From NCBI GenBank assembly GCA_964640435.1, contig CAZXFJ010000001.1:64542-128541 (forward strand): a stretch of 64,000 nt of DNA, in the 5' to 3' direction. Position numbers and translations under genes: made by a program. The notes beneath the pieces were generated by a model. It was not told where the DNA came from. It did not search any database and worked only from the letters and a program-made list of their open reading frames with translations. Within the stretch, counting starts at the first letter, position 1, and each line of letters begins with the position of its first letter. Below, one piece after another: positions 5,049 through 55,359 of this stretch. The DNA is from an uncultured Gammaproteobacteria bacterium. GTDB taxonomy: Bacteria; Patescibacteriota; Microgenomatia; Levybacterales; GWA1-39-11.

Positions 5049-6071
5049 ATGAAAAAGGTTGTTGTTATTGGTGGTGGAACAGGGACATATACGGCCCTGA
5101 CTGCCCTTCGTGATAAAAAATATGATCTTACAGCCATTTTGACAATGGTAGATGATGGTGGATCAAATAAGGTGCTTCGTGATGAATTTGGTCTCCTTCC
5201 AACATCTGGTGTAAGGCTTGCTATGGTTGCGCTATCAAGTAAGCCATCACTTCTTCGTGAACTATTTTTATACCGTTACCACAAGGGAACAGGAATCTCT
5301 GGAATGACCTTTGGTAATCTGTTCTTAGCAGCAGTTACTGATATTTTAGGATCTCAAGAAAAAGCAATTGAGCACACATCGGATATATTAAAAGTTAAAG
5401 GAAAAATACTACCAATTTCTCATGAAGATGTTCGCTTGGTCGCGCACTACGAGGATGGATCTGAAGTTGTTGGAGAGCATAATATTGATGAACCAACTCA
5501 CGATGGAAAAATGAAGATTACAAAACTTTTTACACGTCCAGAAGCTACAATAACTGAACATGCAAAGCAAGCAATTTTAGATGCAGATACTATAGTTTTA
5601 GGTCCCGGCGACTTTTATACAAATTCTGTAGCAAATCTTGTTATCGGAGGAGTAGTTGATGCATTGATGGAATCAAAGGCACAACTCATTTTTGTTATGA
5701 ATCTTATGACTAAATATGGTGAGACATATGATTATTCTGCATCTCAATATATTGAAGATCTTGCAAAATATATTCCACTATCAAGAATAAACGTGCTTTT
5801 AATTAATAATGATATGAAGTTACCTGTGGAAACTCTCGAAAAATATAAAGAGGAGTTTTCAATTCCTGTTGTAGATGATCTAGATAGTATGGATTTGCCA
5901 GAGGGCGTAAGAGTAGTTCGTGCACCTATTTTATTTAGAAAAGAAATAGAACCTGAAAAAGGAGATTTAGTAAAGCGAAGTATGATAAGACATGATCCAA
6001 GAAGACTTGGTAAAATATTAACAGAACTTATAGGAACTGATGAGTCTTCAGAGCCTGTTAACAATGGATAA
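5049..6071 (+). CDS. YvcK/CofD-family protein (UPF0052, gluconeogenesis factor / 2-phospho-L-lactate transferase-like)
   Basis: VVIGGGTG...LTAILTMVDDGGS motifs diagnostic of the CofD/YvcK family. Confidence 0.7.
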   Translation: MKKVVVIGGGTGTYTALTALRDKKYDLTAILTMVDDGGSNKVLRDEFGLLPTSGVRLAMVALSSKPSLLRELFLYRYHKGTGISGMTFGNLFLAAVTDILGSQEKAIEHTSDILKVKGKILPISHEDVRLVAHYEDGSEVVGEHNIDEPTHDGKMKITKLFTRPEATITEHAKQAILDADTIVLGPGDFYTNSVANLVIGGVVDALMESKAQLIFVMNLMTKYGETYDYSASQYIEDLAKYIPLSRINVLLINNDMKLPVETLEKYKEEFSIPVVDDLDSMDLPEGVRVVRAPILFRKEIEPEKGDLVKRSMIRHDPRRLGKILTELIGTDESSEPVNNG

Positions 6072-20775: not shown

Positions 20776-20807
20776 GGGGGGAGTTAAGAACTTCCTTCCC
20801 TTTTTTT
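20776..20807 (+). terminator. Leader hairpin (GGGGGAG...CTTCCTTCCC) followed by T7 in the rpoB 5' leader; candidate attenuator
   Basis: G/C-rich imperfect stem followed by TTTTTTT, located between the promoter and the rpoB ATG (20844). Confidence 0.35.
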
Positions 20808-28069: not shown

Positions 28070-28098
28070 TGGAATTTGAGCACGATTTATAGTAGAAT
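28070..28098 (+). promoter_or_regulatory. Candidate rpsL promoter TGGAAT-17-TAGAAT with a TTGAGCACGA element at the start of the spacer; very short leader
   Basis: Hexamers at 28070-28075 and 28093-28098. The spacer begins TTGAGCACGA, identical to the rplC leader promoter spacer. Confidence 0.4.
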
Positions 28099-28108
28099 AT
28101 ACAAACTT

Positions 28109-28531
28109 ATGCCAACACTTAACCAATTAATTAAAAACGGCCGAAGCAAAAAGAGTAAAAAAGTTAAAGCAACAGGATTGCGTACTATTTTTAATGCTAA
28201 AGAGCGCAAGTACACATTAGTTCCTTCTCCTCAAAAACGTGGGGTTGTAACTCTTGTTCGTACAATGACTCCTAAAAAGCCAAACTCAGCTCTTCGTAAA
28301 GTTGCTCGTGTTAAGCTTTCAAACAGAGAAGAAGTTACAGCATATATTCAAGGAATTGGACACAACTTAGCAGAGCACGGAATCGTTTTGGTTCGTGGTG
28401 GTCGTGTTAAGGATTTACCAGGAGTTAAATATCACCTAGTTCGTGGTAAGTTTGATTTAGCTGGAGTAGAAACAAGAAGAAGCTCAAGAAGCCGATACGG
28501 TACAAAGAGACCACAGGCTCAAAACGCATAA
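28109..28531 (+). CDS. rpsL: 30S ribosomal protein S12
   Basis: [12 protein letters not shown]... canonical S12 N-terminus. The ORF-track start at 28076 is rejected in favour of the internal ATG. Confidence 0.95.
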
Positions 28532-32883: not shown

Positions 32884-32910
32884 CGTTCGATCTTCGAGCG
32901 AATTTTTTTT
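32884..32910 (+). terminator. Hairpin (CGTTCGA-TCT-TCGAGCG) followed by T8, ending 3 nt before the fusA ATG; leader attenuator/terminator-like element
   Basis: 7-bp stem including one G·U pair, 3-nt loop, AA, then TTTTTTTT. A candidate TTTACA-17-TAAAAT promoter lies at 32848-32876. No Shine-Dalgarno. Confidence 0.4.
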
Positions 32911-32913
32911 AAT

Positions 32914-40259: not shown

Positions 40260-40904
40260 ATGGTAGCAGTTGAGAGAGGCGTTTCTCTTGGTTTGCCAAT
40301 TGATATCCCCGTTGCATCGGCACAGACTTCTTATGACCGTGTCACAGATCACAAAATCCTTAAGGGATTGCACGATGGAAATGTTAAAAGGGTTGATGGT
40401 AATTACTTAAATAGAAACATTCCAATCGCATACGATACCGACAGAGCACTTCTTCAGCAGTTAGGGGTTCCATATTTTATGTACGATGCTCTATGGGGAG
40501 CTAATTGGATTGATGGAAATATCCCGGATGAGCAGCGTAAAAAAGAATTGTCTTATCAGTTTTATGATCCTGGAATTCAGTTAATTGAGAATGTAGAATC
40601 AAATGTTCGTGTAGTTATTGACCTTGATAGAAAGGGGCCTTTATATGTTGTTGGTATTCAAAAAGTCGATCCGCGGAGATCCTATGCAAATGAAAATCTT
40701 GTTCGCGATGCTAAGTTTAAGCTTGGTCAGAGTGGAGAAACATATATAGACCCAATGGGAATTACTCGTGAGTATATTCGCTACGATAAAGACTATGATG
40801 TTCGCGACAAAGATCATTTAGAAGATAATTTTGCTGTTGCAGAGCCACTTGTTGCATTGGGACATGTTGCTTCTATTCTTGGATATAGGATAAGAAGCGT
40901 ATAG
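40260..40904 (+). CDS. Hypothetical protein (214 aa)
   Basis: ORF preceded by a TTGACA-17-TATAAG promoter-like element at about 40220-40248. No recognisable family. Confidence 0.4.
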   Translation: MVAVERGVSLGLPIDIPVASAQTSYDRVTDHKILKGLHDGNVKRVDGNYLNRNIPIAYDTDRALLQQLGVPYFMYDALWGANWIDGNIPDEQRKKELSYQFYDPGIQLIENVESNVRVVIDLDRKGPLYVVGIQKVDPRRSYANENLVRDAKFKLGQSGETYIDPMGITREYIRYDKDYDVRDKDHLEDNFAVAEPLVALGHVASILGYRIRSV

Positions 40905-47250: not shown

Positions 47251-47279
47251 TTGACGAGGCACGATAATTTTTGTATTAT
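47251..47279 (+). promoter_or_regulatory. tuf promoter TTGACG, 17-nt spacer, (TG)TATTAT. The spacer contains GCACGA.
   Basis: Hexamers at 47251-47256 and 47274-47279. GCACGA at 47259-47264. A weak hairpin (ACACC-CAAGA-GGTGT) plus U-rich tract follows at 47287-47310 before the ATG. Confidence 0.55.
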
Positions 47280-47324
47280 ATATCTCACACCCAAGAGGTG
47301 TTTTATTTTTGACAAAAAACAAAT

Positions 47325-48506: not shown

Positions 48507-48550
48507 TTTAAGGGTTTCGCACATTTGAAAAGTTAAGTTCGCACGCTGCA

Positions 48551-48577
48551 GGCCTACTATTTAGTGGGCTTTTTTTG
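48551..48577 (+). terminator. Rho-independent terminator-like hairpin (GGCCTACT-ATTT-AGTGGGCT) + T7 between tuf and rpsJ
   Basis: 8-bp stem with two G·U pairs, 4-nt loop, followed by TTTTTTT. Confidence 0.45.
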
Positions 48578-48592
48578 TATTAAAATTTAAAT

Positions 48593-48904
48593 ATGGCACA
48601 AAAAGGAAGAATTAGAGTAAAACTTAAGAGTTATGATTCAAGGATCATAGATTCAACGTGTCAACAAATCCTTGATACAGCTATAAGAACCGGTGCAAAA
48701 GTCATCGGTCCTATTCCATTACCTACAAAAAGAAGCGTTTTTGTAGTAAACAAATCTCCTTTTATTGATAAAGATGCTCGTGAGCACTTCCAGCTTAAAA
48801 CTCACAAAAGACTTGTTGATATCATGAATCCAACTGATAAAACAATTGAATCTTTAATTCATTTAGATCTTCCAGCGGGAGTAGATGTAGAGATTAAGAT
48901 GTAA
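48593..48904 (+). CDS. rpsJ: 30S ribosomal protein S10
   Basis: [21 protein letters not shown]... S10 family. 103 aa. Confidence 0.95.
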
Positions 48905-49322
48905 TAAGCTCTTTTACGAGCGTGTGAGTTTCAATTTTTTTCAATTCTTCAAGCATTTGTTCGCTTATATTGTAATTTTTCATTTCATCAAAGCTGATCC
49001 AAGCAAAATCTGAGTGCTCTTCTGATAATTGTACGTCATAGCTACCTATTACTTCACATAAGAAATCTATTTGAACATAATGAGTGTCGCGACCCGTATT
49101 TTCATACATCCAAACGGCAAGTGGTGAGCCTATTTTAACATCGAGTCCTGCTTCTTCTTTTATCTCGCGAGACGCACCAGATATTGGATCTTCCATGTAT
49201 TCGAGCTTTCCTCCGGGAATTTCCCATGATCCAGGCAAAAATGAGTCATTATCAGATCTTTTCATGAGTAAAAACTTATTATTATGGACAATAAAACCGC
49301 CGGTAACTACCTTTTGATTCAT
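48894..49322 (-). CDS. NUDIX hydrolase
   Basis: Nudix box GGKLEYMEDPISGASREIKEEAGL (Gx5Ex7REUxEExGU). The 3' end overlaps the rpsJ stop by 11 nt on the opposite strand. Confidence 0.8.
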   Translation of the reverse strand: MNQKVVTGGFIVHNNKFLLMKRSDNDSFLPGSWEIPGGKLEYMEDPISGASREIKEEAGLDVKIGSPLAVWMYENTGRDTHYVQIDFLCEVIGSYDVQLSEEHSDFAWISFDEMKNYNISEQMLEELKKIETHTLVKELITS

Positions 49323-49403
49323 AGATAGTTATTATAGCAAATTATTATTAAATCCTTATTTTTCTGAAAAATAAAATTATGTAATATTTGAATATCGGTC
49401 GTG

Positions 49404-49434
49404 TTGCAATTGAGCACGAAATCATATATAATCG
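49404..49434 (+). promoter_or_regulatory. Promoter for the rplC-led operon: TTGCAA, 17-nt spacer (TTGAGCACGAAATCATA), TATAAT
   Basis: Hexamers at 49404-49409 and 49427-49432, with the shared spacer element TTGAGCACGA. Confidence 0.55.
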
Positions 49435-49507
49435 TATCTTACATGTCCAAACTATTGATGTATTTCAATAATACATAAATCGAAGTCAATCCCTGGGGCA
49501 TATATTT

Positions 49508-49531
49508 AAGCGACTTCGAGTCGCTTTTTTT
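49508..49531 (+). terminator. Leader hairpin AAGCGACT-TCG-AGTCGCTT followed by TTTTT, ending at the rplC start; attenuator-like
   Basis: Perfect 8-bp stem, 3-nt loop, U-tract, then GTG/ATG of rplC at 49532/49538. No Shine-Dalgarno. Confidence 0.55.
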
Positions 49532-49537
49532 GTGGTT

Positions 49538-50440
49538 ATGAATGTTACAAGTATAATCGGTAAAAAAATTGATCAAACACAAGGCTTTTTAGAAGACGGA
49601 AAACGTGTGCCGCTTTCCGTTATTAACGTGGCTGGAAACGTAGTATCCCAGATCAAAACAGTTGATCATGAGGGATATAATGCAATCCAACTCGGATTTG
49701 ATAATGCAAAGCGCGTTACAAAACCAATCCAAGGACACATTAAGAAAGCGGGTTTGAAAGATACATCACCCCGCTTTTTTCGTGAAAATAGGCTCGTTGA
49801 TGGCCCAGCTGACGTAGAAGTTGGATCACAAATTGTTGTTGCTGAAGTTTTTGAACCAGGAGACATTGTTGATGTTACAGGAACAAGCAAGGGTAAAGGA
49901 TACGCAGGAGTTGTTAAGAAATTTAGATTTGCTGGAGGACCAAAAACTCACGGACAATCAGACCGACATCGTGCGCGTGGATCAAGTGGATCAGGTACAA
50001 CTCCAGGTCGTGTTTACAAGGGTAAAAAAATGTCTGGACGTATGGGTAATGAGCAGGTAACTGTTAAAAACTTAGAAGTTTTGGGAATTGATGGAGACAC
50101 GCTTTTAGTTCGTGGACTTATTCCAGGAATTAAGGGAGCAGTTGTTTTTGTTAAAAAAGTTGGAAAAAACAAAAAATTCGTTCCACTATGGAGCGAGAAA
50201 AAAGAGGAAGTAGTTGAAGAAACTCCAGTTGAGGAAACAGTAGCCCCAGTTGAAGAGGTAAAGACAGCAGAAGAAACAGTTGAAACTCCAGAAGAAACTG
50301 TAGCAACAGCAGAAGAGACTGTTAGTACACCTGAAGAAACCGTTGAAACAGCTGAGGAAACTGTAAAAACTGAAGAAGCACCATCTGAAGAAGCTGTTGA
50401 GGTTAAAGAAGAAGTAAAGGAAGGAGAACAAAATGCCTAA
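49538..50440 (+). CDS. rplC: 50S ribosomal protein L3 with a ~90-aa acidic C-terminal extension (start may be GTG at 49532)
   Basis: L3 core (IIGKKIDQTQ...GTSKGKGYAGVVKK). C-terminal EETVxTxE repeats. Confidence 0.9.
   Translation: MNVTSIIGKKIDQTQGFLEDGKRVPLSVINVAGNVVSQIKTVDHEGYNAIQLGFDNAKRVTKPIQGHIKKAGLKDTSPRFFRENRLVDGPADVEVGSQIVVAEVFEPGDIVDVTGTSKGKGYAGVVKKFRFAGGPKTHGQSDRHRARGSSGSGTTPGRVYKGKKMSGRMGNEQVTVKNLEVLGIDGDTLLVRGLIPGIKGAVVFVKKVGKNKKFVPLWSEKKEEVVEETPVEETVAPVEEVKTAEETVETPEETVATAEETVSTPEETVETAEETVKTEEAPSEEAVEVKEEVKEGEQNA
50226..50380 (+). repeat. 21-nt period in-frame tandem repeat (about 5 copies) encoding (A/P)EETVxT heptads in the rplC 3' extension
   Basis: gaagaaactgt.../gaagagactgt.../gaagaaaccgt.../gaggaaactgt... 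units. Protein: ETVETPEETVATAEETVSTPEETVETAEETVKTEE. Confidence 0.7.
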
Positions 50441-55191: not shown

Positions 55192-55305
55192 ATGAAAGTA
55201 CAAGCTTCAATTAAAAAAAGATGTTTGAAATGTAAAATTATTAAGCGCCGAGGCGTGCTGTTTGTTATTTGTGAAAATCCAAAGCACAAACAACGCCAAG
55301 GATAA
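55192..55305 (+). CDS. rpmJ: 50S ribosomal protein L36 (37 aa), not in the ORF track. Located between rplX and rplE instead of after infA.
   Basis: [37 protein letters not shown], hand-translated from 55192-55305. Canonical L36 Zn-ribbon. Confidence 0.9.
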
Positions 55306-55334
55306 TTGATAAATCGAGGCTAATAAAGTATAAT
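55306..55334 (+). promoter_or_regulatory. Candidate internal promoter TTGATA-17-TATAAT upstream of rplE
   Basis: Hexamers at 55306-55311 and 55329-55334, in the 54-nt gap between rpmJ and rplE. Confidence 0.4.
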
Positions 55335-55359
55335 TTAGCTTCGGATAATTATTAAAAAT

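Follow-up and report, generated by a model that had tools for sequence, protein, structure and literature searches.

Promoters of the translation apparatus and a shared decamer

This analysis concerns a decamer, TTGAGCACGA, found in promoters of ribosomal protein genes within a 64,000-nucleotide (nt) stretch of contig CAZXFJ010000001.1 (assembly GCA_964640435.1; Patescibacteriota, Levybacterales), hereafter referred to as the window. The window has a G+C content of 36%, and Pfam matches on identical products were obtained for rpoC, rpsL, rpsG, tuf, rpsJ, an antisense NUDIX gene, rplC, rplD, rplW, and rplB. No tRNA genes were found in the 64 kb, and Rfam at the gathering threshold gave zero matches in the window. 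Three promoters are relevant to the decamer, namely those of rpsL, tuf, and the leader that precedes rplC. Their elements are the following.

28070..28075, plus strand: -35-like element of the rpsL promoter, TGGAAT, non-canonical (TGGTAT in relatives)
28076..28092, plus strand: spacer of the rpsL promoter, TTGAGCACGAtttatag, 17 nt
28076..28085, plus strand: first copy of the decamer, TTGAGCACGA, at rpsL spacer positions 1-10
28093..28098, plus strand: -10 element of the rpsL promoter, TAGAAT, 10 nt 5' of the ATG (28109), leaving a very short or absent 5' untranslated region
28109..28531, plus strand: rpsL (ribosomal protein S12; Pfam Ribosom_S12_S23 on the identical product), with rpsG next
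47251..47279, plus strand: tuf promoter, TTGACG-17-TATTAT, with -35 at 47251-56, -10 at 47274-79, and spacer agGCACGAtaatttttg (= AGGCACGATAATTTTTG)
47259..47264, plus strand: GCACGA in the tuf spacer, positions 3-8
49404..49409, plus strand: -35 element of the rplC-leader promoter, TTGCAA, within GTGTTGCAATT, which is invariant in alignment A1 (see below)
49410..49426, plus strand: spacer of the rplC-leader promoter, TTGAGCACGAaatcata (= TTGAGCACGAAATCATA), 17 nt
49410..49419, plus strand: second copy of the decamer, TTGAGCACGA, at rplC spacer positions 1-10; its TT is invariant in orthologues
49427..49432, plus strand: -10 element of the rplC-leader promoter, TATAAT, within TATATAAT, invariant
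49538..50440, plus strand: rplC (ribosomal protein L3; Pfam Ribosomal_L3), heading the rplC-rplD-rplW-rplB cluster; its 300-residue product is an exact match to P0001, encoded on an NCBI contig of 182 kb

In a consensus scan the tuf and rplC promoters were accepted, each scoring 10/12 with a 17-nt spacer. The rpsL site was not accepted, its TGGAAT -35 scoring 3/6, and it is called a promoter because TGGTAT-17-TAnAAT is kept in relatives rather than on its scan score. All three sites are predicted to be genuine housekeeping sigma-70-type core promoters, as their hexamers, spacing, and position relative to the gene are conserved in orthologues. The promoter assignments of the initial annotation, from which the decamer was taken, were upheld on these grounds; only the end that it gave for the rplC-leader promoter (49434) lies 2 nt too far, since the -10 ends at 49432. 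The segments downstream of the -10 elements are all A+T-rich (ATACAAACTT at rpsL, CGTATCTTAC at rplC, and ATATCT at tuf).

There are exactly two exact copies of TTGAGCACGA in the 64 kb on both strands, each directly 3' of a -35 and in the same register. The statement that an identical 10-mer opens the 17-nt spacers of the rpsL and rplC-leader promoters is therefore correct, as is the description of GCACGA in the tuf spacer with a 2-nt shift. It was likewise confirmed that rpoB, the XRE region, the gene at 40260, and the other promoter-like sites of the window lack the motif. Variants of the decamer with one mismatch are not enriched (7 matches against 3.7 expected), and GCACGA alone occurs 24 times in the window on both strands, which makes the tuf match a weak one.

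The chance level of the match was assessed with an empirical null built on the 28,441 pairs formed by 239 promoters predicted in the window and in related loci. Between non-orthologous promoters an in-register identical run of at least 10 nt occurred in one of the 28,441 pairs, and runs of at least 8 nt in about 18. Depending on the number of promoter-like sites counted, the chance of a coincidence like that of rpsL and rplC is roughly 0.2-3% per window. The match is thus unlikely by chance, yet not remote for a scan covering many windows. In an all-against-all comparison, shared 12-mers between non-orthologous intergenic regions were common, so that isolated extra matches carry little weight.

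The decamer takes part in no inverted repeats of at least 6 nt and has neither dyad nor direct-repeat symmetry; a 5-nt TCGTG...CACGA pair, read by eye, is all that is visible at rplC, and rpsL does not share it. A metagenome scan of 241 million records for the decamer in promoter register (pattern TKGNAWTTGAGCACGANNNNNNNTANAAT) returned just two unrelated matches, one within a rubrerythrin-like open reading frame (ORF) and one in marine non-coding DNA. GCAC, CACG, and GCACGA were not enriched in 112 high-confidence promoter spacers from outside the window, and a general promoter element of the lineage was rejected on this basis. In intergenic DNA of Microgenomatia loci GCACGA/TCGTGC was found 21 times against 11.5 +/- 3.4 in shuffles, a mild enrichment in heterogeneous contexts. 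A full-text literature search found no description of the decamer, the matches being primers or unrelated sequence.

Orthologous promoters in relatives

Closer relatives were collected through protein searches, after which their contigs were looked up. A genome scan with RplC placed the window in Patescibacteria/Microgenomatia, where Levybacteria/Levyibacteriota genomes are the nearest named ones, with only 50-59% RplC identity. Contigs of the same species (L001-L006, L100) are 99.8-100% identical and hence uninformative. For rplC, alignment A1 was built from the window and loci L087, L089, L090, and L099. Invariant in it are GTGTTGCAATT, AA at spacer positions 11-12, TATATAAT, the leader blocks ACATGTCCAAACTATTGA and TCAATCCCTGGG, and the terminator GCGAC..GTCGCTTTTTT. 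None of the eight columns under GAGCACGA (49412-19) is invariant. The corresponding spacers read TTCTTACCTGAATCCTA in L087, TTCATACATTAATCATA in L089, TTGAAGCGAGAAAAGTA in L090, and TTAAGGCCGAAACAGTA in L099. The decamer is absent at rplC from all four and from L007-L016, distant Levy-like and Davies-like relatives also lacking it.

At tuf, 14 promoters (the window and 13 relatives) share TTGACG, a 17-nt spacer with a final G, and a TAT[TCA]AT-like -10, which is TAATAT in two of them. Apart from this G, the spacers of different genomes are unrelated in sequence, and only that of the window contains GCACGA (0/13 relatives).

The rpsL promoter was compared in four relatives (L092, L093, L095, and L097) with 81-88% RpsG identity. 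A (C)TGGTAT/TAGTAT -35 is conserved in the four, and TAnAAT stands in the same register in all of them; the -35 region, (C)TGGTATTT, is non-canonical yet conserved. The promoter of L095, TGGTAT TTGAGCACGATTTATAG TACAAT, is identical to that of the window at 27 of 29 positions, with a spacer identity of 17/17, in a genome whose rpsL flanks are unalignable with those of the window, with a third-codon identity of 0.53-0.61 in rpsL and rpsG and an identity of about 85% in RpoB and RpoC. L093 and L097 have another spacer type in common, TT[CT]AGCTTCG[AG]ATA[TA]TG, and L092, the closest of the four (88% RpsG identity), has TTCGAAGCCAATTATTG, which is not of the window type. The rpsL core promoter with its poor -35, TGGTAT, therefore behaves like one conserved block of 29 bp, of which at least two versions exist. 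It was also observed that the rpsL -10 lies 6-10 nt 5' of the ATG in the four closest relatives, pointing to leaderless or near-leaderless messages; the leader of L097 is 33 nt.

L095 and L099 belong to one contig (GCA_964570355, contig CAZMXU010000064.1 for L099) of the genome that has the window-type rpsL spacer. Its rplC spacer (TTAAGGCCGAAACAGTA) and its tuf spacer lack the motif. Its rpoB spacer, AAGCACGAGCCATAGTA, carries AGCACGA, and GCACGAnnnATAGTA is common to its rpoB and rpsL spacers. In addition, GCACGATTTATA lies about 40 nt upstream of its tuf -35. A 16-mer, TTTAGCTTCGGATAAT, is common to the L097 rpsL spacer and the rplE promoter region of the window (55334-49, from the last T of the -10). 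Both GCACGATTTATA and the 16-mer were downgraded as meaningful matches, as such non-orthologous intergenic matches are expected at appreciable rates.

The initial annotation had named beforehand, as an outcome that would speak against its motif, absence from orthologous promoters. Such absence was found at rplC, at tuf, and at three of the four rpsL promoters, and L095 alone keeps the rpsL spacer at 17/17.

A degenerate spacer signature in rplC and rpsL promoters

What the rplC and rpsL promoters have in common became apparent when 28 non-identical rplC and rpsL spacers were set against 209-222 other predicted promoters. TT opens the spacer (positions 1-2) in 25/28 of the former and 32/222 of the latter (p = 1e-15). 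GC at positions 5-6 (10/28 against 7/222, p = 7e-7) and AGC at positions 4-6 (7/28 against 3/222, p = 1e-5) were also over-represented. TT together with a GC dinucleotide starting at positions 4-6 occurred in 18/28, compared with 7/209 overall, 3/44 promoters of leaderless geometry, and 0/14 tuf promoters. The G+C content of spacer positions 3-10 is 0.50-0.60 in the rplC and rpsL families and 0.30-0.33 elsewhere, and GCAC is present in 7/28 spacers against 5/222. An unbiased screen of positions and k-mers recovered TT, GC at 5-6, and AGC at 4-6 as its top terms. Counted by hand, the signature is present in about half of roughly 12 diverged clades, in which the rest of the spacer is scrambled.

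These comparisons support a class-specific, degenerate spacer signature that marks the rplC and rpsL promoters and not that of tuf. Read against it, the decamer falls into parts. Its TT extends the -35 in nearly every rplC and rpsL promoter of the class. The third base, G, is variable, and AGC is class-typical; statistically, a G+C-rich block around AGC (positions 4-7) marks the two families and is missing from other promoters, with the caveat that the members of each family are orthologous. The ACGA is evidently lineage-specific and, judging from alignment A1, free to vary at rplC. The GCACGA of the tuf spacer is best treated as chance, because tuf lacks the signature (0/14). The suggestion that the decamer is a lineage-specific promoter element can accordingly be kept for a degenerate form at rplC and rpsL; it extends neither to tuf nor to the exact decamer.

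Interpretation of the shared spacer sequence

The explanation that we favour, at roughly even confidence, is that these are ordinary sigma-70-type promoters with a class-specific signature in the upstream spacer, which possibly provides a contact for RNA polymerase and aids a weak -35, and that the decamer does not constitute a conserved operator in its own right. RNA polymerase itself would contact the spacer in its upstream half (about -29 to -20) or read the shape of the DNA there. Such a contact could act like an extended -35 or a Z-element and help -35 elements that depart from TTGACA (TGGTAT at rpsL, TTGCAA at rplC). The spacer segment from -24 to -18 has been shown to add to promoter strength via the beta' zipper when contacts at -35 and -10 are weak (PMC3173786). 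Such a contact would account both for the conservation of the rpsL core promoter as a 29-bp unit and for the free drift of the tuf and rpoB spacers, which follow TTGAC[GA]. The exact 10/10 identity would then arise because both spacers fit a single loose signature well, with coincidence supplying about 4 nt more. The initial judgement that the match is unlikely by chance holds for its frequency per window, but the exact rpsL/rplC identity is probably in part due to chance, and the tuf GCACGA appears to be chance as well.

Several observations weigh against this explanation. The patterns of the signature were picked after the data had been inspected, though the unbiased screen gave the same top terms. 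Since the rplC promoters are mutually orthologous, and the rpsL promoters likewise, the Fisher tests overstate independence. The rplC spacers of L087 and L089, which are close relatives, have no G+C block, and any constraint must therefore be weak. Simple purifying selection does not predict that L092 (88% RpsG identity) lacks the type-A spacer when L095 (83%) keeps it exactly. Finally, AGCACGA in the rpoB spacer and GCACGATTTATA near tuf in L095/L099 would fit a factor-binding box with turnover of sites better than a contact with RNA polymerase. Another account, possible if somewhat improbable, combines pure coincidence with shared ancestry: spacers would matter by their length only, the rpsL/rplC identity would be an in-register match by chance, the L095 rpsL match would have been retained, and the signature would reflect orthologous descent of two old promoters. 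In-register runs of at least 10 nt do arise between unrelated promoters, as the null of 28,441 pairs showed with its one case and its about 18 runs of at least 8, and 12-mers are commonly shared by non-orthologous intergenic regions. The lack of an invariant column under GAGCACGA at rplC, the tuf orthologues without the motif, and the metagenome scan without further copies fit this account too. However, a spacer identity of 17/17 between the window and L095 would be very unlikely under neutrality when synonymous sites are 53-61% identical and the flanks unalignable (0.6^17 is about 2e-4). Moreover, TT with a GC block recurs in deeply diverged clades in which the remaining spacer is scrambled, and the joint occurrence at rpsL, rplC, and tuf in one genome is estimated at roughly 1e-4.

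It is also conceivable, but unlikely, that a "GCACGA box" is the operator of a putative regulator that co-regulates transcription and translation operons in some Levybacteria, with sites rapidly gained and lost; its targets would be rpsL, rplC, and tuf in the window, and rpsL, rpoB, and the region upstream of tuf in L095/L099. Still more doubtful is the claim that such a lineage-restricted operator couples the transcription of the translation machinery to that of the transcription machinery in some Levybacteria, its sites turning over quickly between genera. If true, this would add a rare example of bacterial ribosomal protein promoters under the control of a transcription factor. The three promoter-spacer copies of the window speak for a box, as do AGCACGA in the rpoB spacer and GCACGATTTATA near tuf in L095/L099, the sole other genome with the same rpsL spacer. 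In Daviesbacteria-like rplC spacers CGCAC is kept in 4/5, and in the rplC promoters of L023, L036, and L040 GCACG ends 8 nt 5' of the -10, which is the register of the window. The mild intergenic enrichment (21 against 11.5 +/- 3.4) and the share of rplC/rpsL spacers with GCAC (7/28 against 5/222) point the same way. On the other hand, membership differs between the two genomes with this rpsL version, as rplC and tuf of L099 and rpoB of the window lack the box, and the closest relative by RpsG identity has the motif at neither rpsL nor rplC. The box has no dyad or direct-repeat symmetry, its distance to the -10 varies (7, 9, or 10 nt), and the extra matches lose significance given the all-against-all search space. 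The more specific idea of the initial annotation, a site for a growth-rate or stringent-type regulator at rpsL, rplC, and tuf, is unsupported: the motif is missing at rplC in all closer relatives, from 13 tuf promoters, and from three of four rpsL promoters, it has no symmetry, and the metagenome scan found no further copies in promoter register. Very improbable is a reading in which the decamer forms part of an opposite-strand promoter, its complement TCGTGCTCAA being the first transcribed bases 3' of a minus-strand -10, for which TATGAT at 49426-21 (serving the divergent NUDIX gene) and TATAAA at 28091-86 are the candidates. A minus-strand TGGACA-17-TATGAT (49449..49421) was found by two scans, L089 has one too, and CGTGCC follows TATAAT at a leaderless minus-strand gene (32818). 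At rpsL, though, all that an antisense promoter would transcribe into is the 3' end of rpoC, tuf has no divergent gene, L087, L090, and L099 do not keep the minus-strand -10, and the promoter-like count in that region is 8 against a shuffled expectation of 7.5.

Almost nothing is known of promoter architecture and of the control of ribosome synthesis in Patescibacteria (the Candidate Phyla Radiation), an uncultivated group with very few regulators. Should the signature prove functional at rplC and rpsL, it would provide a simple handle for spotting strong ribosomal protein promoters in these genomes and an example of a spacer making up for a weak -35. At present the exact decamer is of interest mostly as a curiosity, and the adjoining conserved leaders are more promising as regulatory elements.

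Leaders downstream of the promoters

Two leaders were delimited downstream of the promoters described above.

47287..47301 (in the wider region 47287-47310), plus strand: 5' hairpin of the tuf leader, then a U-run, from folding
49439..49537, plus strand: rplC 5' leader, with the invariant 5' block ACATGTCCAAACTATTGA, an upstream ORF (uORF), the block TCAATCCCTGGG, and a terminator-like hairpin

The rplC leader is nearly unchanged at the base level in four relatives, and its terminator-like hairpin (49508-49526) is followed by a T-run. It contains a possible uORF of 11 codons (49443-49478, MSKLLMYFNNT*), whose length and stop position are kept in relatives. The leader also has a long-range helix. 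TCGAAGTC (49481-88) is able to pair with the 5' arm of the terminator, and an antiterminator is therefore possible. No Rfam family was found at E <= 10 around the rplC promoter and leader. The rplC leader is a candidate for a new ribosomal protein leader or attenuator.

The tuf leaders of the window and five relatives, folded singly, each form a hairpin followed by a U-run, with differing stems (ACACC/GGUGU, AACC/GGUU, CUCAUU/AAUGAG, and GUCGCC/GGCGAU among them), and the other eight relatives show a hairpin and U-run by eye. This hairpin could be an attenuator or a 5' stabiliser. Operon-specific regulation more plausibly resides in the conserved leaders, that is, the terminator leader of rplC and the hairpin and U-run leaders of tuf, rpoB, and fusA.

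The rpoB (~20776-20807) and fusA (~32884-32912) leaders have a hairpin and then a T-run just 5' of the start codon, an arrangement also seen in relatives; that of rpoB is rich in purines (GGGGGAG...CTTCCTTCC). In the tuf-rpsJ intergenic region (48507-48592) a (T)CGCACATTT(T)ACA-like block lies 5' of the tuf terminator (48550-71) and is kept in several relatives. TTCGCAC occurs twice in this intergenic region of the window.

Other features of the region

Many genes of the window (e.g., those at 5049, 30811, 32818, 40260, and 42709) have a TATAAT-like box 6-7 nt 5' of the ATG and lack a Shine-Dalgarno sequence; in many cases TGn stands before the box. The distance of this box from the ATG and the lack of a Shine-Dalgarno sequence suggest that leaderless or near-leaderless mRNAs are widespread in the lineage.

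A NUDIX hydrolase gene (48894-49322, minus strand) separates rpsJ from rplC in antisense orientation and overlaps the rpsJ end. Its insertion splits the classical S10 operon and so leaves rplC with its own promoter. In relatives the rpsJ-rplC gap holds different inserts, such as a cation-efflux gene and hypothetical genes. The divergent NUDIX-rplC intergenic region contains a near-perfect palindrome of 19 nt, TTATTTTTCTGAAAAATAA (49356-49374), a possible operator that superficially resembles a CodY box. Further downstream, rpmJ (L36) is placed between rplX and rplE and not after infA (55192-55359), and a strong promoter-like sequence, TTGATA-17-TATAAT, lies 3' of rpmJ before rplE and is not conserved in relatives. 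In L099 (12800-17800) nearly all S10-spc genes are parted by spacers of 60-100 nt made of the repeated palindromic words TTAGGGGTTAGC, CTAGTAACTAG, and TAGATACTAG.

Comparison with known systems

A close counterpart of the signature is the Z-element, which is located at about -22 to -18 (AACCT/AACAT) and is read by the beta' zipper of the RNA polymerase core (Yuzenkova et al., 2011, PMC3173786). Both lie inside the spacer, and the weakest -35 here, that of rpsL, has the most conserved spacer, just as the Z-element matters most with a weak -35 or -10. In contrast, the signature is further upstream (-29 to -20) and G+C-rich (TTnAGC...), and the segments from -22 to -18, CGATT at rpsL and CGAAA at rplC, have no sequence resemblance to the Z-element.

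Stringent rRNA and ribosomal protein promoters of E. coli have a G+C-rich discriminator between the -10 and +1. The promoters studied here are similar in that a G+C block marks promoters of the translation apparatus in otherwise A+T-rich promoter DNA. Nevertheless, identity with the discriminator was rejected, as the segment between -10 and +1 is A+T-rich here and the G+C block adjoins the -35. Operators located in spacers, such as the sites of the MerR family, are dyad-symmetric, have spacers of 19-20 nt, and are conserved together with their regulator. The decamer also lies between -35 and -10, but it is asymmetric, in a 17-nt spacer, and unconserved at rplC and tuf.

Several other identities were tried and rejected. 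For a sigma-54 promoter (TGGCAC-N5-TTGC, GG at -24 and GC at -12), the first G is replaced by A in GAGCACGA, and no TTGC stands at the required spacing. The resemblance to the CIRCE/HrcA operator (TTAGCACTC-N9-GAGTGCTAA) is limited to TT(G)AGCAC, with no second arm, and TTGAGCACG differs from the DnaA box (TTWTNCACA) at 3/8 specified positions. A coding N-terminal extension was considered, as in the window a TTG at 28076 shares the reading frame of rpsL, but the L095 copy lies 29 nt from the ATG and is out of frame. If TTGAGC were the real -35, the rplC spacer to TATAAT would be 11 nt.

The three promoters share conserved hexamers, 17-nt spacing, and their place upstream of rpsL, tuf, and the rplC cluster with the sigma-70/sigma-A promoters of the str (rpsL-rpsG-fusA-tuf) and S10 operons. 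Here, however, these operons are broken up: rpsL-rpsG stand apart from fusA and tuf, and the antisense NUDIX gene comes between rpsJ and rplC. The promoters differ as well, with a TGGTAT -35 at rpsL, a nearly leaderless rpsL, and no Shine-Dalgarno sequences. The S10-operon leader of E. coli is subject to L4-mediated attenuation. Like it, the rplC leader is a conserved structured leader that ends in an intrinsic terminator before an L3-L4-L23-L2 cluster. The two have no sequence or Rfam similarity, and the leader described here precedes rplC rather than rpsJ and carries a conserved 11-codon ORF at its 5' end.

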